Assembly: GCA_947625605.1 (NCBI GenBank)
Contig: CANQOY010000005.1
Location: forward strand, 3,206 to 67,205
Direction of reading: 5' to 3'
Origin: an uncultured Clostridia bacterium
Lineage (GTDB): Bacteria > Bacillota > Clostridia > Christensenellales > Borkfalkiaceae
DNA: 64,000 nt
Shown here: positions 2,531 to 61,809 of the stretch, in pieces
Numbering within the stretch: the stretch's first letter is position 1
Layout: each line of letters starts with the position of its first letter
Made by a program: the position numbers and the translations under genes
Notes under the pieces: generated by a model
Database searches by the model: none
What the model saw: only the letters and a program-made list of their open reading frames with translations
What the model was told of the DNA's origin: nothing

Positions 2531-3430
2531 CTATGCGCGCGGGGCGGCGCGGACGATGTTTTCAAAGAAGGCAAGAAGGGTGCCCCATTTCTCCTCCCGC
2601 CCTTCCGCTTCATTGAGAAATTCATGGCGGGAATTCGGGAACAGGACGAGGGATACCTCGGACATGCCCCCCTTGCGCGTGTAAAAATCGTACAGTTTCC
2701 GCACGCCCTTGCCCATGTTTCCGACGGGGTCGTTCTCCCCCGAGACGAGGAGAAGAGGGAGGTCCTTTCTCAGCCCGGCAATGTATTTTTTCGTATAGAG
2801 GCTGCGGAGCCCCTTGAAGAAATCCCTGTAAAAACGGTTGGAGCAGGTGAACCCGGAGAGCGGATCGCCCGCATACTTCTCGTTGTTTTCGGGGTCGTTC
2901 GAGAGCCACTGCCCGTCCTCGAACTTCTTGGAATAGGCGCCGAAGGAGAGCTTCTCGATGAGGCGGGCAGGCGAACTCTCCCGCCCGAGATGGGAGACCA
3001 GCGAGCCTGCGTACACCTCGGCGTCCTTTTTATAGCTGCTCCCGCCGATGACGGCGCCGTCGATCTTCTCCGCATAGTCGGAGATGTAGCGCTGGGTCAA
3101 AAAGGAGCCGTAGGAAAACCCGAACAGGAAATACTTCAACCCGGGATATTTCGCCCTGTAACGATCGGTGATCTCCCCCTCGTCGCGCACCGTGTCCATG
3201 AACATGTCCCCCGCATGGTAGCCGAGAGAATCGGGGTCCGTGAGTCCGTGCCCGCGGTGGTCGTCAGCGACGACGACGTACCCATGTCCGTTGAGGAAGC
3301 GCGCAAATGCGTCGTAGCGCGCCGCGTGCTCCGTCATGCCGTGCACGATCTGCACGACCGCTTTGGGCTGTTCGGCCTCCGTCCATTCATGCACATAGAT
3401 CTCCGCCCCGTCAAACGATCTGAATTTCAT
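2531..3430 (-). CDS. alpha/beta hydrolase (lysophospholipase/monoacylglycerol-lipase-like)
   Basis: HG motif (VQIVHGMTEH), nucleophile elbow GFSYGS, about 300 aa. ATG 3430 with SD AAGGAGA. Confidence 0.8.
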   Translation of the reverse strand: MKFRSFDGAEIYVHEWTEAEQPKAVVQIVHGMTEHAARYDAFARFLNGHGYVVVADDHRGHGLTDPDSLGYHAGDMFMDTVRDEGEITDRYRAKYPGLKYFLFGFSYGSFLTQRYISDYAEKIDGAVIGGSSYKKDAEVYAGSLVSHLGRESSPARLIEKLSFGAYSKKFEDGQWLSNDPENNEKYAGDPLSGFTCSNRFYRDFFKGLRSLYTKKYIAGLRKDLPLLLVSGENDPVGNMGKGVRKLYDFYTRKGGMSEVSLVLFPNSRHEFLNEAEGREEKWGTLLAFFENIVRAAPRA

Positions 3431-3614
3431 GCCGTCTCCTTTTCCCCGCGCGGGCTCTTCCGCAGGCGGGATTTTTTTCCATTATAGCACATTCTTCCCG
3501 AAAATCAATCCCTCGGCGGGAATTTTCCGCCCTCTTTCCGAGGCGCGCCGCAAAAATTCCGCTTCCCGCCCAAAGTTCGTTGCGCTTTTCGCGGTTTTGT
3601 GGTATAATGAATGT

Positions 3615-12294: not shown

Positions 12295-12530
12295 AGGGGG
12301 AGACCGCTCTTGTCATTCCGAATGAAGAGCGCCACCCCTTCCGTCACTCGCGCTGCTCGTGCCACCCACCCCTCAATGGGTGGGCAAGGAAAGACCGATT
12401 CTCGGCGCACCCTTGAGGGGGAGCTCCGCCGCAGGCGGTGAGGGGGTGTCATCCCAAATGAAGAGTGCCACCCCTTCCGTCACTCGCGTTGCTCGTGCCA
12501 CCCACCCCTCAAGGGGTGGGCAAGGGAACC
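12293..12530. repeat. two tandem empty units of the arm-pair repeat
   Basis: Unit 1 is 12311-12390 (left arm truncated). Unit 2 is 12404-12527 and has the same arms as the DUF559 element joined by a 14-nt linker. Confidence 0.8.
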
Positions 12531-12580
12531 CCCATTTTTCCCGTCATTCTGCCCGCCTTGTGGCTCATCAGAACAAATCA

Positions 12581-20069: not shown

Positions 20070-20540
20070 GGCGCCCCCTTGAGGGGGAGCTGTCTGCCCC
20101 GCAGACTGAGGGGGTGTTATTCCAATTCTAAATAATACAAGATCCTTTTCTTTACCTGTTCATAGTTGAATGCAACATCATAGTTCGATATCCTATAAAC
20201 AGAAATGCCGCGCTCTTTCAAAAAAGCATCGCGCCGAACATCGTATCGTTCCCCGTCCTCCTCAAAGTGCTGCGATCCGTCCAATTCAAGCGCAAGATTT
20301 TTTTGGGGACAATAGAAATCGACGACATAACAACCAAGCGCCTTTTGCCGCACGAACTTCACGGGAAGTTTGCGCAGAAATGTGTACCACAATTTCCGCT
20401 CTTCCTTTGTCATTGATTTTCGCAACGCTCGGGCGTTTTTGGTCAATTTCGGATTATATAAGTCGTTCATTTCTATGAGAACACCCCTTCCGTCGCGGCT
20501 TCGCCGCGCCACCCACCCCTCAAGGGGTGGGCAAGGGAGC
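20070..20540 (-). mobile_element. nested-palindrome repeat element carrying the DUF559 ORF (filled copy)
   Basis: Left arm 20070-20123 and right arm 20481-20540 match the adjacent arms at 12404-12527 and 39885-40104. The ORF occupies the junction. Confidence 0.5.
20117..20470 (-). CDS. DUF559 endonuclease-domain protein (Vsr-like fold), 117 aa
   Basis: NARALRKSMTKEERKLWYFLRK...VVDFYCPQKNLALELDGSQH...D..RD..L...G is the typical DUF559 pattern. The gene is visibly AT-richer than its flanks. ATG 20470. The stop lies inside the repeat arm. Confidence 0.8.
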   Translation of the reverse strand: MNDLYNPKLTKNARALRKSMTKEERKLWYTFLRKLPVKFVRQKALGCYVVDFYCPQKNLALELDGSQHFEEDGERYDVRRDAFLKERGISVYRISNYDVAFNYEQVKKRILYYLELE

Positions 20541-39884: not shown

Positions 39885-40219
39885 GGCGCCCCCTTTGAGG
39901 GAGGAGCGGTGCAATTCTGCTCAACAGTGCAGTGCACTGTGAGCTGCACCGCGACAGGAGGCGTGGCCTCGCCGACGGTGTTGCGGCGGTCCCTGCCGCC
40001 CAACCGGGTCGAGGCAAAGCCGAGACTGAGGGGGTGTCATTCCCACACCCCTTCCGTCACTCGCGTTGCTCGTGCCACCCACCCCTCAAGGGGTGGGCAA
40101 GGGGAGTCCGCGTCTCTCCGGTCGTTCCGCCCCGCTCGCTTTGTCTACGCTGTCATTCCGAGGGGCTTTGCCCCGAGAGATTCCCCTTAAACGAAGTCCG
40201 TCATCGACCAAGGGGATAC
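39885..40219. repeat. empty arm-pair repeat with 118-nt insert, followed by a TGTCATTCCG-type module
   Basis: Left arm 39885-39907, 118-nt insert, CTGAGGGGGTGTCATTCC 40026-40043, right arm 40044-40104, TGTCATTCCG...CCCCTTAAACGAAGTCCGTCATCGACCAAGGGGATAC 40151-40219. Confidence 0.8.
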
Positions 40220-45969: not shown

Positions 45970-46140
45970 TTTTTCCTCCGAAACGCCCTTGTGGTAGGCT
46001 AATAAATTATATTTGTATTTATTTTTTTTGTAAACTGTTTTTTTATGCGTTTCGCAAAAAACTTTCGGAAATGTAAAAAAATTTTGCCCCGCGGGGCATG
46101 TGGTATTTCATTTTCGGGTATAGCCCTCCTTGGCTGCCCC

Positions 46141-46368
46141 TGTCATACCGAGTCTGCGTAGCAGACGAGTGTATCCCCTTGGTCGATGAACGGACTTCGT
46201 TTAAGGGGATTCTCTCCTCCCTCGCAAGCTCGGTCGTACTTTGCCCTTGCGGGCTCGTGCCGCCCTTCGACAACGAAAAGAACGTGCGGGCGGGGCGGAA
46301 TGACAGCGTGAGAAAAAGTGGGCGGGGCGGAATGACAGCGTAGACAGGGCAGGTCAAGGGGCGCCAAG
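46141..46368. repeat. full-length TGTCATACCG...CGGAATGACA unit plus partial copies
   Basis: The 46141-46305 unit has inverted termini. A partial duplicate ends at 46337. The reverse-oriented GGCGCCCCTTGACC motif ends at 46368. Confidence 0.8.
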
Positions 46369-46430: not shown

Positions 46431-48872
46431 TCATTCATTAGGGGTATCCGGCGTCTCGGGAGCGGGTTCCTCGGGAGCAGGTTCTTCGGGAGCGGGTTCC
46501 TCGGGAACGGGTTCTTCGGGAGCGGGTTCCTCGGGAGCAGGTTCTTCGGGAACAGGCTCTTCGGGAACGGGTTCTTCGGGAGCGGGTTCCTCGGGAGCGG
46601 GCTCTTCCGTGAGTTCCTCCTCGGGCGTGGGCTCGGGATCGACGGCATAGACGTCGATGTCCCTATCGTCCGTGGTGTCAACGTGCATGCGCTTCTCCTT
46701 GGGCGCCTTCTGCGCGTTCTGCCGCTTCTTGTGGAAGAAGTGGAGGACGAGGAGCCCTGCAAGACCGACCACCAGCACGCTTCCGATGACGATGAGTGCG
46801 ATCGCCCACGCGGGCAGGTGCGTCTCCTCCTCTTCGGGCGGGGTGTAGCGGGTGAGGAACGTGGACCGCCAATAGTCGTCCCATGCCTCGTTGTCCGCGT
46901 CGTCCCACGTACCGATCTTCGTGACGAAGAAGGACTGCGTTCTGAACGAGGCGTCTCCCTCCTTGAAGTCGGTCTCTTCGAAGAGCTTCACCTCGTCGTA
47001 GGTGTATCCTTTCCCCTCGACGTATGCCGCAAAGGCCTCGCGGTCCTTTTCTTCATAGGGATTTTCGAGATCGGCGTCCTCCTTGATGGCGTCCTCATAT
47101 TCGCGCACGTTCTCGTTGACCAGATCCGCGTTGCCCGTGTAGAAGTAGCACTCGATGGCTTCGGCGAGGATGTCGTTGACGTCCGACCGGATGCGGCTGA
47201 GAAGCGCCTCGTCCCGGTCGGAGACGATATCCACGATCTCATCGTACAGATCGTTGCGCGCGGCGAGCTCGACGTTGTCCATGAGGCCATTCTCGTCTTT
47301 GAGGTTGATCGTGCTCACATAGTTGAAGGAGTTGCCGCCGTACGTCTTGCCGTCCGCAAAGAAGAGGACGTTGTCGACGATCTCGACGTCGTACCAACCG
47401 CTCGTATGCACCGCTTCGAGAATGCGCACGGGGACATAGTAATCGTTGTGATCCTCGGGATGCGTGAGGTTGCTGTAATCGTCCTTTCCGGTCCCGAGCT
47501 TATCGGTGACCCCGTTGTACACCGCGCGGTTGATGGAGGAACCGCCCGAGACGGAATTTGCATAATACAGATAGTGGTAGCCTTCCGCATCCGACTCGTT
47601 GTCGATGCCGATGATCTTGGGCGAGCTGGCCGTGCGGACGATCGTGGTCTCTGCGCCGTCTTCCACGTCAACGCGGATGAGGTTGGAGCCGTCCGCATAG
47701 ATGTAGTGGTGCTTGCCGCCCTCCCGATAGAAGAAGGCGTCGGTCACCGAGGAGGAAGCCGCGTCGGAAGCGATGACGTCGAACGATTCGGCCTCGCTGT
47801 CGTTTGCGGCGATGGTATCCCAGCCGGAGGCAAGGTCGGTCTCTTCGAGGAAGTAGAGCGTGCCGCTCGCGCCGACGACGCCGGGAGGCGCCGAAACGGG
47901 CTTACGGGTGAAGTAAAGGCCGCCGTTGTCGTACGTCTTTAAGCTGTAAATGTAGCCGACGGGATCTCCGGGCACCGTCTCGCTGTGATTGAATTGGCTG
48001 TAATTGTCGCGGAAGTCGTTCGCCCCGACGCCGTCGAGCACGAGCTCCCCGAAGTTGTGATAGGGCTCTTCCCCGTCGTTGTTCTCGTCCAGCCACGCCT
48101 GATCCCATTCGTAGTCGTAGGGAGCCTCCGTGGCGTCCGCGCGGACGCGGTAGATCTGGTTATAGGAGAGGTCTGCGCCGTAGTCGCTGTCCGGACGCAC
48201 CCGCACGCCCATCGTGTAGTACAAATAGGGCTCTCCCTTTTCGGAGGCGTGGAACTGATATTCCGAGGCCTCGCGCACGAGCAGAACGTCCTCCCCCGTC
48301 TCCGTGTTAAAGGAGTGGATGTCGAAAGCGGACGACCCCTCCACATAGAGCACATACACCACGCCGTTCTCCTCCACGAAGCGGTACGGCGTCGTATTCG
48401 TTTCGAGGCGGAAGTGGTGGCGGATGTCCGTCCCGTCGAGCTTGGCGCTCTTGAAGTCCAGCCAGCTGTTTTCCACCACGCCCGAGGTGTTGCGCACGTT
48501 GGTGGGCGTTGCGAAGTACACCCTGCCGCCATAGACGAAGATGCCCGCCTCGTGATCGCCTGCGACCATCAGGGAGGGGATGACCGTCTCGGCGCTGTTG
48601 ACGCCCGCTTCGACGTCCGCCTTGCGGATGCGCTGCAACGCACCCTTGACGGGAGCCCCGTAGGCGTTGTCCGCATCGCTGGTCTCAACGCCGTTGATGA
48701 AGTAGTAATAATCCCCCACGCCGACGACAAAGCCGCCGTTGGACTCCGCCGCCCCTTCGGGAATGCCGGCAGGCGTCTTGAAATCGCTGCCGCACGCCGC
48801 GATGGAGACGATCCCGAGGGAAAGCGTCGCGGCAGTCGCCAAAGCCAAAATTTTCTTTGTAGATTTACGCAT
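46431..48872 (-). CDS. large surface lipoprotein with C-terminal TM anchor and PEEPx-repeat tail
   Basis: Lipobox SIAAC after the signal peptide, long beta-rich ectodomain, TM WAIALIVIGSVLVVGLAGLLVL, tail (PEEPA/PEEPV)x10. SD GGAAGGA. Confidence 0.7.
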   Translation of the reverse strand: MRKSTKKILALATAATLSLGIVSIAACGSDFKTPAGIPEGAAESNGGFVVGVGDYYYFINGVETSDADNAYGAPVKGALQRIRKADVEAGVNSAETVIPSLMVAGDHEAGIFVYGGRVYFATPTNVRNTSGVVENSWLDFKSAKLDGTDIRHHFRLETNTTPYRFVEENGVVYVLYVEGSSAFDIHSFNTETGEDVLLVREASEYQFHASEKGEPYLYYTMGVRVRPDSDYGADLSYNQIYRVRADATEAPYDYEWDQAWLDENNDGEEPYHNFGELVLDGVGANDFRDNYSQFNHSETVPGDPVGYIYSLKTYDNGGLYFTRKPVSAPPGVVGASGTLYFLEETDLASGWDTIAANDSEAESFDVIASDAASSSVTDAFFYREGGKHHYIYADGSNLIRVDVEDGAETTIVRTASSPKIIGIDNESDAEGYHYLYYANSVSGGSSINRAVYNGVTDKLGTGKDDYSNLTHPEDHNDYYVPVRILEAVHTSGWYDVEIVDNVLFFADGKTYGGNSFNYVSTINLKDENGLMDNVELAARNDLYDEIVDIVSDRDEALLSRIRSDVNDILAEAIECYFYTGNADLVNENVREYEDAIKEDADLENPYEEKDREAFAAYVEGKGYTYDEVKLFEETDFKEGDASFRTQSFFVTKIGTWDDADNEAWDDYWRSTFLTRYTPPEEEETHLPAWAIALIVIGSVLVVGLAGLLVLHFFHKKRQNAQKAPKEKRMHVDTTDDRDIDVYAVDPEPTPEEELTEEPAPEEPAPEEPVPEEPVPEEPAPEEPAPEEPVPEEPAPEEPAPEEPAPETPDTPNE
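46455..46615 (-). repeat. in-frame 15-nt tandem repeat encoding (PEEPA/PEEPV)n
   Basis: Alternating GGGAGCGGGTTCCTC / GGGAGCAGGTTCTTC units inside the 3' end of the lipoprotein gene. Confidence 0.85.
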
Positions 48873-49065
48873 ATGAGATATCCTTCCGTAATTCGGAAAT
48901 TTGTTCTACCGATACATCTTCCATTATAAACTAAATTAGGGCTTTTGGCAATCAAAAACCCGCAAAACTTGCACTTTTCTTTGAGAAATTTTGTGTATGT
49001 TCTGTGGAACGGGGATGATTTTGCGGCGATCCGCAACGAATCAGCCCGAAAAGGGAGGTAGGATC

Positions 49066-49326
49066 ATGGAAAAATTCGGCATCTTCGAGCTCTTGGACGC
49101 ACTCGCCGCGCTCACGCCGCCCGCCCGGGAGGACGGACCGCCCGAAGCGGAGGAGCCCGCCGCAGAGACGCAGCCCGCCCCCGCGGAGAAGCGCACGCCC
49201 GACGCAGCGTTCGCACCGCCCTCTTACGGCGAAGGCGGGGCCGCGCCCGCAAACCTCTCGCAGGGGTCCGCCTACGGGGCCTTCCTCGCGCGCCACGAGA
49301 AGGCGAAAGAGCGGGCGAAAAAATAG
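49066..49326 (+). CDS. hypothetical low-complexity protein (86 aa)
   Basis: ATG 49066 lies 7 nt after AAGGGAGG. Ala/Pro/Glu-rich. Followed by the bidirectional terminator at 49364-49391. Confidence 0.45.
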   Translation: MEKFGIFELLDALAALTPPAREDGPPEAEEPAAETQPAPAEKRTPDAAFAPPSYGEGGAAPANLSQGSAYGAFLARHEKAKERAKK

Positions 49327-49363
49327 GCCGAACGCGCATGCCGTGTCCGCGGCGCCCGCCGAA

Positions 49364-49391
49364 AAAACCGACCCTTTTGGGGGTCGGTTTT
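49364..49391. terminator. bidirectional terminator between the 49066 ORF and rpsI
   Basis: AAAACCGACCC-TTTTGG-GGGTCGGTTTT. Confidence 0.8.
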
Positions 49392-49396
49392 GCATG

Positions 49397-49807
49397 TCAT
49401 CTCTTCGAGAACTGAGGAGCACGGCGCGCCTTTTTGAGGCCGTACTTCTTTCTCTCCTTGACGCGGGGATCTCTCGTAAGGAATCCCGCTTTTTTCAGGG
49501 CGGGACGCGTTTCGGGCTCCGCTTCGAGAAGCGCTCTCGCAATGCCGAGACGGATGGCCCCGGCCTGCCCCGTATATCCACCGCCGATGACGTTCACGAA
49601 GATATCGTACTTGCCTTCGGCTTTGACTTCAACGAGAGGCTGCTTGACGACGTACTGCGTCGTGCCCTGCGGGAAATAGTCCTCCAACGGACGGTCGTTG
49701 ATGACGATGCCGCCGTTTCCGCCGGGAATGAGGCGAACGCGCGCAATGGCCTTCTTCCTCCTACCCGTGCCCCAGAACTGCAACTTTTTCTTAATCGCCT
49801 TAGCCAT
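49397..49807 (-). CDS. rpsI: 30S ribosomal protein S9
   Basis: [19 protein letters not shown] and C-terminal [12 protein letters not shown]. Confidence 0.97.
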
Positions 49808-50253: not shown

Positions 50254-50336
50254 ATCCGTGCTCCTTGTATTCGATCGGCAGCTTGTTCCGTCGGCCGACC
50301 CGCCGAAACGGCAGCGTCTGCGCCGACTACCCCTTT

Positions 50337-50365
50337 ATTATAGGGCCTCGGGGGAGTTCCGTCAA
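50337..50365 (-). promoter_or_regulatory. rplM-rpsI promoter
   Basis: The minus strand reads TTGACG (50365-50360), 17-nt spacer, TATAAT (50342-50337). It leaves a GC-rich 5'UTR of about 80 nt. Confidence 0.55.
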
Positions 50366-50500
50366 GCTGTTTTGACTTTGGATTTTAAGATTTTTTCGTT
50401 TTTCGGGAATTATTTTATTTTTATTCACGAATTTGCTTTCGGGTGAAAAAAGCGGTTTCGGGGCCCGCAAGCGCGTCCGTCCCGCGCGCACGGACGGGGA

Positions 50501-51052: not shown

Positions 51053-51057
51053 GGTTC

Positions 51058-51836
51058 CCCCTTTCGCGCTGCGCGACCCAATTCGCCACGCCACGCACGC
51101 TTCCTGTCTTTGAGAACATACAAACTTCGCGGGCGACACGGCTTTGAGATGCACACTCTAACCCCTCGCAAATTTCTTTGCCCTCTTTCCTGTCCCCGCA
51201 GGGGGATTCTTTCTTGAAAGAAATTTGCGAAAGCTCAAAAATTTCCTTGCGCGAGCAGGGTCTCCCTGCGCTGCGCGACCCAATTTGCCACGCCATGCAC
51301 GCTTCCTGTCTTTGAGGTCATGCAGGCTCGCGGGCGACATGGCTTTGAGATGATATATCCTAACCCCTCGCAAATTTCTTTGCCCTCTTTCCTGCCCCGC
51401 AGGGAGCTCTTTCATGAAAGAAATTTGCGAAAGCTAAAAAATTTCTTGCGCGAGCAGGGTCCCCCTGCGCTGCGCGACCCAATTCGCCACGCCACGCACG
51501 CTTCCTGTCTTTGAGAACATGTATGCTCCGCGGGCGACATGGCTTTGAGTTGCGCACTCTAACCCCTCGCAAATTTCTTTGCCACTATTTTTGCCCCGCA
51601 GGGGGATTCTTTCTTGAAAGAAATTTGCGAAAGCTCAAAAATTTCCTTGCGCGAGCAGGGTTCCCCTGCGCTGCGCGACCCCATTTGCCACGCCACCGCA
51701 GGCTTCTTGTCTTTGAGAACATGTAGGCTCCGCGGGCGACACGGCTTTGAGATGATGAAACTTAACCCCTCGCAAATTTCTTTGCCCTCTTTCCTGCCCC
51801 GCAGGGAGCTCTTTCATGAAAGAAATTTGCGAAAAA
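51058..51836. repeat. tandem array, 3.8 copies of a ~200-bp unit in A-B-A-B order
   Basis: The anchor GCGCTGCGCGACCC recurs at 51066, 51268, 51467 and 51668 (spacings 202/199/201). Each unit has a 13-bp inverted repeat CGCAAATTTCTTT/AAAGAAATTTGCG. Confidence 0.9.
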
Positions 51837-51841
51837 ACTTT

Positions 51842-53704: not shown

Positions 53705-55090
53705 TTATATTTTGCTCAACGTGTAACTGTCTTTGGAGTCCTTCACGGCGTAGCCGAGCTCCTTCAACTTCTCCCGCAGCTCGTCCGACTTCGCCCAGTC
53801 CCTGTTCCTGCGGGCTTCGAGACGCGCCTGCGCGATCTCCCTGACCTCGGCGGGCGCCTCGTCCTCTGCGGCGTACCGCGCGAGGTACTCCGCCGCGTCC
53901 TTCCCGAAGAGCCCCAGGAGCGAATACGTCCTGCGGATCTGATTGGTGATGCGGCGCGCCTTCGGGTCGCCTGCGGCGAGCAGTTTCGCCGCCTCCCGGA
54001 AGTAGCCGAAGAGGTTGGCCACGGCGAGAGAGGTGTTGAAATCGTCGGACATGGCCGCGTCAAATTCGGCGTCGATCTCGGGCATGCCCCCCTCCTCCGC
54101 GGGGAAAGCCGCCTCGATCTTCGCGATGAGGGTGTAGAACCGCACGAGGTGCGCCTCTGCATCCGGGAAGAGGTTGTCCGTGATGTTGAGGTCGGCGCGG
54201 TAGTTGCCGGAGAGGAGCGCAAGTTTGAGCGCCTCGTCCGAATAGCGGGCCAACACGTCCTCCATGAGGATCACGTTCCCGAGCGATTTGGACATCTTCT
54301 GCCCGTTGACCTTGATGAGCCCGTTGTGGATCCAATAGTTCGCGAATTTCTTGCCCGTGAGGGCCTCCGACTGGGCGATCTCGTTCTCGTGGTGCGGGAA
54401 GATGAGGTCGCGGCCGCCGCCGTGGATGTCGATCCTGTCCCCGAACGCGGCGTGGTTCATGGCAGAGCACTCGATATGCCAGCCCGGCCGACCCTTTCCC
54501 CACGGGGAATCCCAGCAGATCTCGCCGGGTTTGGCCGCCTTCCAGAGGGCGAAGTCGTACGCGCTCCGCTTGTTCTCATCGTTTTCGACGCGGACGCCGT
54601 CGAGCATGTCCTCCTTGTCCCGCCCCGAGAGCTGCCCGTACGCGGGGAAGGAATCGACGTCGAAATACACGTCTCCGTTGCCTCCCTCGTAGGCATGCCC
54701 CCCACGGATGAGCTCTTCGATAAAGGAAATGATGACGCCGATATGGTCGGTCGCTTTGAGCCAGAGGGTGGGTTCGTCGATGTGCGCCTTCGCCATGACG
54801 GCGTCGATCTTTTCGATCATCTTTCTCGCGTACTCATCGGCGGGGACGCCGACCTCCTTGGATTTGGCGATGATCTTGTCGTCAACGTCGGTATAGTTGC
54901 GGGCATAGACGACGCGATACCCCTGCTTTTCGAGAAACTTGCGGAACACGTCATAGACGAGGGCCTGAAACCCGTGCCCAATATGCGCCTCTCCGGATAC
55001 CGTGATCCCGCAGGCGTACATCTTGACCTTCCCCTCTTCAATGGGGACGAAATCTTCCTTTCTTCGCGTAAGTGAGTTGTAGATCTTCAT
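53705..55090 (-). CDS. cysS: cysteine--tRNA ligase
   Basis: YACGITVSGEAHIGHG (HIGH) and KMSKSLGN motifs, 461 aa. Confidence 0.95.
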   Translation of the reverse strand: MKIYNSLTRRKEDFVPIEEGKVKMYACGITVSGEAHIGHGFQALVYDVFRKFLEKQGYRVVYARNYTDVDDKIIAKSKEVGVPADEYARKMIEKIDAVMAKAHIDEPTLWLKATDHIGVIISFIEELIRGGHAYEGGNGDVYFDVDSFPAYGQLSGRDKEDMLDGVRVENDENKRSAYDFALWKAAKPGEICWDSPWGKGRPGWHIECSAMNHAAFGDRIDIHGGGRDLIFPHHENEIAQSEALTGKKFANYWIHNGLIKVNGQKMSKSLGNVILMEDVLARYSDEALKLALLSGNYRADLNITDNLFPDAEAHLVRFYTLIAKIEAAFPAEEGGMPEIDAEFDAAMSDDFNTSLAVANLFGYFREAAKLLAAGDPKARRITNQIRRTYSLLGLFGKDAAEYLARYAAEDEAPAEVREIAQARLEARRNRDWAKSDELREKLKELGYAVKDSKDSYTLSKI

Positions 55091-55159: not shown

Positions 55160-55678
55160 CTACCTGATTTTCACCACTCTCGCGGGGATCCCCACTACGG
55201 TGGCATAGGGAGGGACCTCTTCGAGAACGACGGCGCCCGCGCCGATCTTCGCGCCCTCGCCCACGGTGAATCCGCCCAGCACCTTGGCACCGCAGGAGAG
55301 GATGGCCCCGCGCTTTACGGTGGGGTGCCGCTTCCCCGTCTCCTTGCCCGTTCCGCCCAGCGTCACGCCCTGATAGATGACGACGTCCGTCTCCACCTCG
55401 GCCGTTTCCCCGATGACGACGCCCGCGCCGTGGTCGATGAACACGCCGGGCGCGATCTTTGCGGCTGGATGGATCTCGATGCCCGTCCTGCGGGCCGTCC
55501 TCTGGGAGAGAAGGCGCGCCAGAAACTTCATGCCGTGCCGCCAGAAAAATGCCGCCCGACGGTGGCCGATGAGCGCGCGCACCCCGGGATAGAGGAGGAG
55601 AACTTCGAGTCTGTTTCTTGCGGCGGGATCGTTTCGCATGGCGGCGTCGAGATCCGCCCGCAGCTTGCGGAAAAACAT
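55160..55678 (-). CDS. cysE: serine O-acetyltransferase
   Basis: DPAARNRLEVLLLYPG, hexapeptide repeats, GVVIGETAEV. Start taken at MFFRKL (55678). The in-frame ATG at 55714 is an alternative. Confidence 0.82.
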   Translation of the reverse strand: MFFRKLRADLDAAMRNDPAARNRLEVLLLYPGVRALIGHRRAAFFWRHGMKFLARLLSQRTARRTGIEIHPAAKIAPGVFIDHGAGVVIGETAEVETDVVIYQGVTLGGTGKETGKRHPTVKRGAILSCGAKVLGGFTVGEGAKIGAGAVVLEEVPPYATVVGIPARVVKIR

Positions 55679-56006
55679 ACCATATTGTATGCTCCCGAAG
55701 GCCGTTTCCGCCATCTCCGCCGCGGGCAGCCCCGCTCTTCGGCTTCTTTCTCGCTTATTTTACCATTCCCGCTGAAAAAAGGCAATCGTTTTTATGCGCG
55801 CGGGAAAAATTCGGGCGCCCTTTCCGCCGGACGGCGGCTTTCGGCAGACAAAATGAAAAAATTGTTCATTTATCAACCGCATGCCCCTTTCTCACAAACT
55901 TTTTTGCGACTTTTGAAGAATTTTCGGAAAATGATTCAAAAAACGCTTGCATTTTGTATCAAGGTATGTTAGAATCTTACAAAAAGTATGAAAATGGAGG
56001 GAAACC

Positions 56007-56810: not shown

Positions 56811-57028
56811 GTTCCCCTTTTGACCCTGCCCGTCCCACGCTGTCATTCCGCCCCACCCGCACCGTCTCTCCTGTCATTCCGCCCCGCCCGCACGTTCTTT
56901 TCGTTGTCCAAGGGCGGCACGAGCCCGTAAGGGCGAAGTAAGGGCAACGCCCCGAGAGAATCCCCTTAAACGAAGTCCGTCATCGACCAGGGGGATACAC
57001 TCGCCCGTTCCACGGACTCGGTATGACA
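56811..57028. repeat. TGTCATTCCG...CGGTATGACA unit (reverse complement of the 46141 unit) plus partial copy
   Basis: 56872-57028 aligns with the reverse complement of 46141-46305. An extra TGTCATTCCG fragment lies at 56841-56871. Confidence 0.8.
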
Positions 57029-61435: not shown

Positions 61436-61581
61436 GATCCGATTCTCCTTGTCTCCCATTGTAGCAGAGCGCAAGGGGCGAACCTTGCCGAAGTTGGGCG
61501 AATGATGGAAAATTACAGAATAAACGCCGCTCTCTCAAAAGCGGCGCGAGGATGCGGACATGGTACCGGGGTAAGGTGTCC

Positions 61582-61809
61582 TGTCATACCGAGCACGCAG
61601 AGCGGGCGAGTGTATCCCCTTGGTCGTTGACGGACTTCGTTTCCCTGTCATACCGCCCCGCCCGCACGTTCTTATCGTTGTCCAAGGGCGGCACGAGCCC
61701 GCAAGGGCGAAGTATTCCGCGAAGCGGACGAGTGTATCCCCTTGGTCGATAACGGACTTCGTATCAGGGGATTCTCTCCTCCCTCGCAAGCTCGGTCGTC
61801 GGAATGACA
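61582..61809. repeat. rearranged/nested copy of the TGTCAT(A/T)CCG unit
   Basis: Termini at 61582-61591 and 61800-61809. The CGAGTGTATCCCCTTGGTCG block occurs twice (61607, 61729) around an inverted CCCCGCCCGCACG...GAAGTA block (61646-61714). Confidence 0.75.

Follow-up and report, generated by a model that had tools for sequence, protein, structure and literature searches.

REP, BIME and REPIN sequences of Proteobacteria often lie at the 3′ ends of genes or inside operons and can persist at orthologous sites; the hairpins of REPs and REPINs are kept through compensatory change, and REPINs are mobilised by RAYT transposases. MIRUs, found in mycobacterial operons, measure 46-101 bp and stand in frame with short open reading frames (ORFs) that overlap the flanking genes. 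MITEs, or miniature inverted-repeat transposable elements, have terminal inverted repeats and target duplications as their defining features, while BOX elements are composites of boxA, variable tandem boxB and boxC whose modules may be absent or tandem; they are highly base-paired, clustered and co-transcribed, and they show nested insertions and no clear target duplication (PMC3049150). REP and BIME sequences have also been described as extragenic hairpins in mosaic clusters that lack the signatures of MITEs, and bcr1 of the Bacillus cereus group as an element with 5-bp direct repeats in which compensatory changes maintain a multi-stem fold (PMC3184786). Here we analyse a 64,000-nucleotide stretch of DNA from an uncultured Clostridia bacterium (assembly GCA_947625605.1, contig CANQOY010000005.1, positions 3,206 to 67,205 of the forward strand), hereafter the window, in which an array of ~200-bp units separates alaS, the gene for alanyl-tRNA synthetase (AlaRS), from a maa-like acetyltransferase gene. 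This unit is a member of a family, not described before, of modular intergenic repeats that are rich in hairpins and dispersed in the genomes of an uncultured rabbit-gut Clostridia clade.

We favour, with a probability of about 0.72, the explanation that the array is a lineage-specific insertion of four head-to-tail copies, the first of them truncated, of this new dispersed non-coding repeat, amplified in place. A first-pass annotation, made from the letters of the window, had described 3.8 tandem copies of a ~200-bp unit, and Tandem Repeats Finder returns that array at 51066-51834 (period 202, 3.8 copies, 88% matches, score 1180). The anchor GCGCTGCGCGACCC lies where it had been placed, at 51066, 51268, 51467 and 51668, and phases the array into units of 202, 199 and 201 nt followed by a partial unit of 169 nt. 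Pairwise identity among the units is 86-92% (0.920 between units 1 and 3, 0.916 between 2 and 4, and 0.914 between 1 and 2, values that hardly differ). The array had been taken as non-coding, a view upheld by unit lengths and indels that differ by non-multiples of three. It had also been said to fill the entire alaS-maa spacer, which it does, although the orientation had to be mended: both flanking genes are on the minus strand, so that the alaS stop codon precedes the array at its right-hand edge and the maa ATG adjoins the left-hand one. The dispersed copies described below set the natural phase of the unit, which starts about 30 nt before the anchor and ends ...AAATTTGCGAAAG. Cut in this phase, the array consists of a 5′-truncated copy without ~40 nt, including the 5′ half of a hairpin that we call P1, and of three full copies; the second of the four includes a window-specific junction, GCTCAAAAATTTCC, and the right end of the fourth is 6 nt from the alaS stop codon.

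Relatives with the same gene pair reveal the junction in its empty state. In locus L043, whose AlaRS is 88% identical to that of the window, alaS and maa overlap by 4 nt, and they lie 0 nt apart in L045 (AlaRS identity 81%) and 3 nt apart in L044 (82%). The flanks of the window are contiguous in L045, reading GGAATAA/ATGACGG, where the slash marks the junction (...GGCGGTTTTGGAATAA/ATGACGGAACG..., or with a longer left flank ...ATCAAGGCGGTTTTGGAATAA/ATGACGGAACG...); thus, the 789-bp block is an insertion that falls precisely between stop and start codon. Spacers made of other repeat modules occupy the junction in L039/L040 (194 bp; AlaRS identity 88%), L046 (230 bp; 84%) and L038 (350 bp; 87%), the last of which also holds the right half, and only that half, of the element studied here, directly before the maa Shine-Dalgarno sequence and in the orientation opposite to the window's array. 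In L041 (87%) maa is absent. L043 has, at 2943-3500, a cysS-alaS spacer of 558 bp with a called 111-aa ORF, where the same spacer measures 54 bp in the window, so different junctions of one operon have expanded in different lineages.

A search for dispersed copies, proposed as a check in the first-pass annotation, decides what the array is made of, as copies occur at many intergenic sites in at least nine related species. Scanning a species-representative genome collection with the invariant 20-mer CCCTCGCAAATTTCTTTGCC gave 32 matched loci, 30 of them in nine metagenome-assembled genomes (MAGs) named 'uncultured Clostridia bacterium' from rabbit gut (Lapin); the other two are chance matches. 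Matches often fall at contig ends, as is expected of multi-copy repeats; such repeats break short-read MAG assemblies, and they could serve as strain-typing loci. Iterated nhmmer searches delineated ~45 full or partial copies in the matched loci and, within the window, none outside the array. JGI metagenomes and IMG/VR, scanned with the 20-mer, yielded only 20-nt chance matches without flanking homology, and distant blastn against plasmid and phage collections gave no match. The whole window had no Rfam match at gathering thresholds; at permissive thresholds the best for the array was Phe_leader, scoring 22.7 bits where the family's threshold is 55 (E = 0.38), which is noise. The unit is thus neither a known RNA family nor an annotated mobile element as judged from Rfam, plasmids and phages. 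There are no tRNA or tmRNA genes in the window, and exact-protein look-ups of its AlaRS and Maa matched no record.

Across these loci the element spans ~200 bp, from (N)TTCCCAATCACTTGC to AAAGAAATTTGCGAAAY, and its parts keep one order in all copies: a short leader, the two-tier hairpin P1, CCCCAATTTG, P2/P3 (forming a hairpin or a central helix) around CTTxATGTCTTTGAGAAC, GCGG(G/C)CGA, GCTTTGAGATG, TAACCCCTC, a 14-bp A/T-rich stem P4 that encloses a variable apical G+C hairpin P5, and finally GCGAAAY. Within this fixed order modules may be absent or tandemly repeated, as in the composite BOX elements. The right half occurs alone in L002, L008, L009, L014, L020, L021, L031, L032 and L038 and the left part alone in L012, L013, L015 and L019, some copies carry inserts of 50-115 nt in the apical region of P4, and head-to-tail dimers are found as well. 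Relative to flanking genes, which were called crudely at the MAG loci from ORF length and G+C at third codon positions, copies are co-oriented at ~13 loci, antisense at ~8 and between convergent genes at 3. The right end is followed within 2-10 nt by a Shine-Dalgarno sequence and ATG in 14 cases (trkA-like, ruvA, pth, uvrB, maa and others), within 0-7 nt by the stop codon of a convergent gene in 10, and by the next copy in 6. Proliferation has in part been recent, with ~97% identical copies at different loci of one MAG, and at sites that are orthologous between species the module content differs, half-elements and full elements being interchanged.

The structure of the unit is conserved beyond its sequence. 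P4 had been noted as a 13-bp long-range inverted repeat; the coordinates were right, and the stem is in fact 14 bp long in all four units, its arms in the first unit being TCGCAAATTTCTTT at 51166-51179 and AAAGAAATTTGCGA at 51217-51230. A CCCCGCAGGG mini-hairpin and a CAGGG-N3-CCCTG hairpin, likewise noted before, are found in every unit, whereas the competing apical CTTTC(AT/TT)GAAAG palindrome, present in the window's units, is specific to them and not conserved across the family. P1 exists in at least seven sequence versions that all form the same two-tier helix, and P4 switches coherently to CGCGCG.../...CGCGCG, CGTTGAATTT/AAATTCAACG or CACGAAATTTTG/CAAAATTTGTG, with double compensatory changes at 6 of its 14 pairs. 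Over an alignment of 18 copies, base pairing is kept in 95.2% of cells, and double changes affect 12 of the 23 pairs tested, compared with 4.4±1.3 in shuffles (0/500 reaching the observed value) and 2-4 in slid registers. Four conserved helices are maintained by compensatory change. The linkers behave differently: the columns of TAACCCCTC, GCGGGCGAC and CTTTGAG (repeated twice) are invariant or near-invariant in the family alignment, and GCGGGCGA is also conserved, whereas the helices vary. Folding of one window unit gave z = -3.3 on the gene strand and -4.0 on the opposite strand.

The helices also seem to move between copies. In MAG CANPZH (Lapin-002 bin41), the copies at L011, L016 and L030 share ~97% identity between P2 and their right ends and yet have three unrelated P1 hairpins; one P2 swap among them is fully compensated (GCGCGA/TCGCGC versus GCCGCA/TGCGGC). 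As the P1 versions of these copies also occur in other species, the pattern suggests that helices behave as exchangeable cassettes, passed on by cassette exchange or gene conversion between copies.

Within the window, the array grew by local duplication. Its units are far closer to each other than to copies in other genomes (87-92% against ~74% identity), and dimers elsewhere pair different subfamilies at 73-77% identity. All three internal junctions are private to the array, GCT(C/A)AAAAATTT(C)C replacing the usual CATTCCCAATCAC. The A-B-A-B order that had been attributed to duplication of a dimer is found again in the informative sites, 8 of which group units 1 and 3 against 2 and 4, with 2 and 1 for the alternative groupings. 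Together with the private junction, this pattern indicates duplication in place of a monomer and then of the dimer. Substitutions among the window's units avoid the columns conserved in the family (4/74 versus 40/154, Fisher p = 1.3e-4), so the units evolved under the family's constraints or were homogenised towards them. We propose that one element or dimer landed exactly between the alaS stop and maa start codons, which were originally adjacent or overlapping, and that unequal recombination or slippage would have expanded it from monomer to A-B dimer to A-B-A-B. The odd 0.8-kb non-coding block in a housekeeping operon would then be an interspersed repeat that expanded locally and no unique regulator. 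Of the roles suggested in the first-pass annotation, a satellite-type expansion comes closest, whereas a tandem RNA specific to this locus and an iteron- or centromere-like array do not agree with an element that is dispersed in both orientations.

Compared by description, the element belongs to the general class of structured interspersed intergenic repeats and to no named family within it. It resembles MITEs in being small, non-coding, multi-copy and polymorphic in presence between relatives, but both of their defining features are absent when tested. The left end TTCCCAATCACTTGC is not complementary to the right end, of which the reverse complement was taken for comparison (GTTTCGCAAATTTC), the ends matching at 6 of 8 positions at best in one subfamily and at 4 of 8 in another. 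With the filled site (window) set against the empty one (L045), no target-site duplication was seen, the arrangement being TAA/insert/ATG with a truncated first unit on the window's side, and no direct repeats were evident at the flanks of ~27 copies. Like BOX of Streptococcus pneumoniae and S. suis, the element has an optional left module, a variable apical cassette and tandem copies, although here the whole 200-bp unit is repeated and not a 45-nt internal module, and its ends do not resemble an insertion sequence as BOX ends resemble the ISSpn2 inverted repeats; host lineage and G+C content differ, so sequence homology to BOX is not expected and this comparison, too, is one of descriptions. 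With REP and BIME sequences it shares an extragenic location, hairpins, a mosaic arrangement and the lack of terminal inverted repeats and target duplications, but a REP is a G+C-rich palindrome of 20-40 nt with a GTAG/CGTC tag, and the present unit a 200-nt multi-helix structure with long conserved unpaired linkers. The bcr repeats, bcr1 among them, are similar in their Firmicutes hosts, their length of ~150-300 bp, their many chromosomal copies and the compensatory maintenance of a multi-stem structure; they differ in that bcr1 has 5-bp direct repeats and positions not conserved between strains, while the present element lacks direct repeats and holds many orthologous sites. MIRUs offer the parallel of a dispersed repeat standing in tandem in the spacer of co-transcribed genes and abutting stop and start codons, but the units described here are ~200 bp long, structured, and variable in length by non-multiples of three.

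Several observations weigh against the explanation of the array as a spreading repeat that was expanded locally. Sampling by the 20-mer favours copies with the canonical P4 left arm. For many copies the site is orthologous from species to species (upstream of ruvA, pth, uvrB or trkA, or downstream of groEL), and the unpaired linkers are highly conserved, both of which would also be expected of a functional RNA or protein-binding element. The term mobile element is drawn from the distribution of the copies, with neither terminal inverted repeats nor target-site duplication beside it, and no transposase or other mobilising protein turned up, no dedicated search of whole MAGs having been made. 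As to the strand on which the fold might act, the element's antisense strand has the lower minimum free energy in 20 of 27 copies (p = 4e-4); G is abundant on that strand, however, and the single mismatches in P4, two G·T and two A·C, favour neither strand.

The conservation just mentioned is what one would look for in a domesticated intercistronic RNA element, one that binds a host protein or RNase and sets the mRNA processing, stability or translation of its neighbours, the array representing a dosage expansion of that function. Retention at orthologous sites, linkers TAACCCCTC, GCGGGCGA and CTTTGAG that stay constant while helices vary, the avoidance of conserved columns by substitutions in the array, and right ends poised just before the Shine-Dalgarno sequence and ATG of 14 genes are all in keeping with such an element, and comparable effects are reported for BOX, BIME, ERIC and Correia elements (PMC3049150). 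We nevertheless consider it unlikely, since a sequence-specific RNA would work in only a subset of copies given the mixture of sense, antisense and convergent placements, the neighbouring genes are functionally unrelated, and half-elements and full elements replace each other at orthologous sites. A related idea, in our judgement quite unlikely, is that the constant multi-helix core with its conserved linkers serves some uncharacterised system as a scaffold, of RNA or of single-stranded DNA, with P1, P2 and the apical hairpin as exchangeable cassettes; wholly different cassettes in otherwise ~97% identical copies, and their recurrence among species, would be expected if the helices encode specificity, by analogy with guide- or bridge-type RNAs of mobile elements or with cognate protein-RNA recognition, and the tandem array would be a multi-unit locus of such RNAs. 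The array might otherwise consist of tandem plus-strand genes for small RNAs of ~160 nt, antisense to the operon, each starting from a promoter at a unit junction and ending at the CCCCGCAGGGG hairpin and U-rich tail of the next unit. Promoter-like sites and terminator-like hairpins do exist on that strand, as detailed below, but the reading is improbable: the −10 hexamer lies in the junction private to the array, such a promoter is missing from the copies of other genomes, units 2 and 4 read ATGAAA in place of TTGAAA, and the supposed terminator is a stem of 4-5 bp with an interrupted U tract, in a region where terminator-like sites are no more frequent than in shuffles. A cis-regulator of maa specific to this locus (a tandem riboswitch or attenuator), or a protein-binding array linked to the origin (iteron, centromere or parS-like), would account for tandem, structured units with palindromic motifs directly upstream of maa; it is very improbable, however, because the element adjoins ruvA, pth, uvrB, trkA, groEL and other genes in nine other genomes and in both orientations, with copies beside unrelated housekeeping genes and not confined to a replication or partition locus, because relatives with the same synteny have no spacer here, and because Rfam returned no match. 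An assembly artefact through collapse or expansion of the repeat is practically ruled out. Although short-read assemblies of other MAGs are indeed broken at members of this repeat family, nothing of that kind is specific to the array, whose units diverge at 8-14% of positions and by indels, so that each can be placed uniquely, and whose A-B-A-B pattern and selective conservation bear the marks of biology.

For the spread of the family, a further proposal refines, and is compatible with, insertion followed by amplification in place. Conserved hairpins, the lack of terminal inverted repeats and target duplications, and exact head-to-tail abutment suggest that spread may involve a mechanism that recognises single-stranded DNA or RNA in its folded form, much as REP/RAYT or IS200/IS605-type systems do. 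In its strict form, as a non-autonomous hairpin-dependent single-strand transposon (an IS200/IS605-derived PATE, a REPIN with its RAYT, or an IS91-like rolling-circle derivative), folded single strands would be excised and inserted, and arrays would arise by insertion beside an existing copy or by rolling-circle read-through. This we regard as possible though doubtful. The filled and empty sites differ by no target duplication, the hairpins near both ends are kept by compensatory change and lie where PATE-type subterminal hairpins do, P1 ~15 nt from the left end and the end of P4/P5 ~5 nt from the right, and abutment is exact even between subfamilies, where 0-5 nt separate ...GCGAAAC from ATTCCCAATCAC. 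The many loci of one MAG that hold near-identical copies point the same way, as does the nested palindrome CGTCCGCGCGGACG in some long-form copies of other genomes, which bears a CGTC tag typical of REPs (PMC3733652). The left flank tends to NTTC, a weak motif for a target and one that may belong to the element itself. The hairpins at the two ends of IS200/IS605 elements are usually similar to each other, but P1 and P5 are dissimilar here, with no correlation between the variants of the two; many copies are old and occupy sites orthologous between species; and no Y1, HUH or other transposase turned up, no search for one having been made. The mechanism of spread should be tractable, given a conserved fold, exchangeable helices and no inverted repeats. 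Integron attC-like ends were rejected, as ACTTAAC, which resembles an inverse core, lacks a GTTRRRY partner at the opposite end, and so were the RNA repeats of type III toxin-antitoxin systems, the downstream gene encoding a hexapeptide acetyltransferase that is conserved and, in relatives, coupled to alaS.

If the array is carried in the alaS-maa transcript, it is best seen as passive or of modest effect there. A promoter scan of the minus (gene) strand found no promoter-like site within the array, in line with the earlier statement that the units hold no good promoter; the plus strand is an exception to it, with a promoter-like TTGAAA-17-AAAAAT at two unit junctions. Its candidate −10 hexamer is part of the window-specific junction and does not occur in the copies of other genomes. 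Terminator-like hairpins on the plus strand lie at 51186-51207, 51388-51406 and 51790-51808, but the region has 7 terminator-like sites against 7.9 in shuffles. The long stem was also considered as a terminator and rejected, there being no U tract after it on either strand. With no promoter or canonical terminator in the direction of the genes, the array is most likely transcribed in antisense orientation as part of the cysS-alaS-maa mRNA, where each unit would fold into several stable stem-loops. That alaS and maa abut or overlap in relatives makes expression of maa by read-through across the array plausible. The putative ribosome-binding region of maa, GAAAGGGGGAACC, corresponds in alignment to the loop and 3′ arm of P1 in the full units (minus strand GCAGGGGAACCCTG), so the truncated copy 1 probably supplies the Shine-Dalgarno sequence that maa would have lost on separation from alaS. 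The array may affect mRNA stability or uncouple the translation of alaS and maa, and insertion between stop and start codons is a natural example of repeats remodelling operon junctions, in which formerly overlapping genes would be uncoupled and a ribosome-binding site seemingly is donated. At two loci downstream of groEL (L018:6136-6219 and L031:4012-4094), the P4 apical hairpin on the gene strand has the form of a canonical intrinsic terminator, GCGGCGCC-UAUU-GGGCGCCGC-UUUU in one copy and CAGCGCCC-UUUCA-AGGGCGCUG-UUUU in the other; the apical cassette can thus apparently carry a functional-looking terminator, as some copies downstream of groEL, and only those, do.

Table 1. Genes, element copies, helices and candidate signals at the alaS-maa junction, in coordinates of the window.
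Feature	Position	Strand	Remarks
rplM, rpsI	beyond maa	-	
maa-like hexapeptide acetyltransferase gene, 183 aa	50501-51052	-	Pfam Mac and Hexapep
Putative maa ribosome-binding region	51053-51065	-	GAAAGGGGGAACC directly before the ATG; from sequence
Whole inserted block, 789 bp	51053-51841		exactly between alaS stop codon and maa start codon
Element copy 1, 5′-truncated	51053-51233	+	nhmmer, positions 37-218 of the hidden Markov model (HMM)
Element copy 2, full, type B	51234-51433	+	nhmmer, HMM positions 10-219, score 206.7
Element copy 3, full, type A	51434-51633	+	nhmmer, HMM positions 16-218; 8 informative sites place it with copy 1
Element copy 4, full, type B	51634-51835	+	nhmmer, HMM positions 12-213, score 215.6
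Hairpin P1	51448-51476		two-tier helix GCGCG-A-GCAGGG / CCCTGC-GCTG-CGCG
Further P1 copies	51249-51277, 51649-51677		partial at 51053-51075
Long stem P4, 14 bp	51567-51630		TCGCAAATTTCTTT/AAAGAAATTTGCGA; encloses apical hairpin P5
Equivalent P4 stems	51166-51230, 51368-51430, 51770-51832		
Apical hairpin P5	51594-51605		CCCCGCAGGGGG, within P4
Conserved unpaired linker TAACCCCTC	51560-51568		also at 51159, 51361 and 51763
Promoter-like TTGAAA-17-AAAAAT	51214-51242	+	across a unit junction; antisense to the operon
Second promoter-like copy	51614-51642	+	
alaS, short-form alanyl-tRNA synthetase, 602 aa	51842-53650	-	Pfam tRNA-synt_2c (1.4e-108) and tRNA_SAD
cysS	53705-55090	-	
cysE-like hexapeptide protein gene	55160-55714	-	

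The genes on either side of the array have features of their own. AlaRS is of a short form, with the catalytic domain and tRNA_SAD but without the long C-terminal domain, and the 120 homologues listed (80-88% identity) are all short as well, at 596-628 aa and almost all 601-606 aa. In relatives alaS is translationally coupled to, or overlaps, the Mac/hexapeptide acetyltransferase gene, an unusual conserved pair. Beyond maa, the 247-bp spacer upstream of rplM (50254-50500) contains a near-consensus promoter on the minus strand, TTGACG-17-TATAAT at 50365-50337, the one strong site that the scan of the gene strand returned, so rplM-rpsI would have its own promoter downstream of maa; the Rfam L13-leader has no match in this spacer.

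Other repeats are plentiful. A second dispersed intergenic repeat of ~90 nt (TGTCATTCCGAATGAAGAG...CCACCCACCCCTCAAGGGGTGGGCAAGG), with a GTCATTCC motif and a G+C hairpin, is found at 12311-12400, 12447-12536, 20505-20538 and 40024-40113, two of its copies lying 136 bp apart, and its GGAATGAC motif flanks or nests in copies of the element studied here at the MAG loci. Further dispersed families occur at 46139-46189, 61580-61630 and 61702-61752, and at 56840-56998, 61644-61714 and 40119-40219; their sequences include CCTGTCATACCG...GAGTGTATCCCCTTGGTCGATGA, CTGTCATTCCGCCCC(A/G)CCCGCAC and a unit of 57-71 nt at 91-96% identity. The window's genome and the related MAGs, of an uncultured high-G+C gut Clostridia clade, are rich in mosaic intergenic repeats, apparently to an unusual degree, and the new family adds a well-structured member to these. 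Repetition extends into coding sequence: a minus-strand gene at 46431-48872 encodes an 813-aa protein with an N-terminal lipoprotein-like signal, a transmembrane segment and no Pfam domain, and, after the membrane segment, a C-terminal (P-E-E-P-A/V)n tail encoded by ~10 copies of a 15-nt tandem repeat at 46455-46625. Between this gene and rpsI, at 49000-49400, G+C content rises to as much as 78%, and a 21-nt imperfect tandem repeat lies at 49155-49207.

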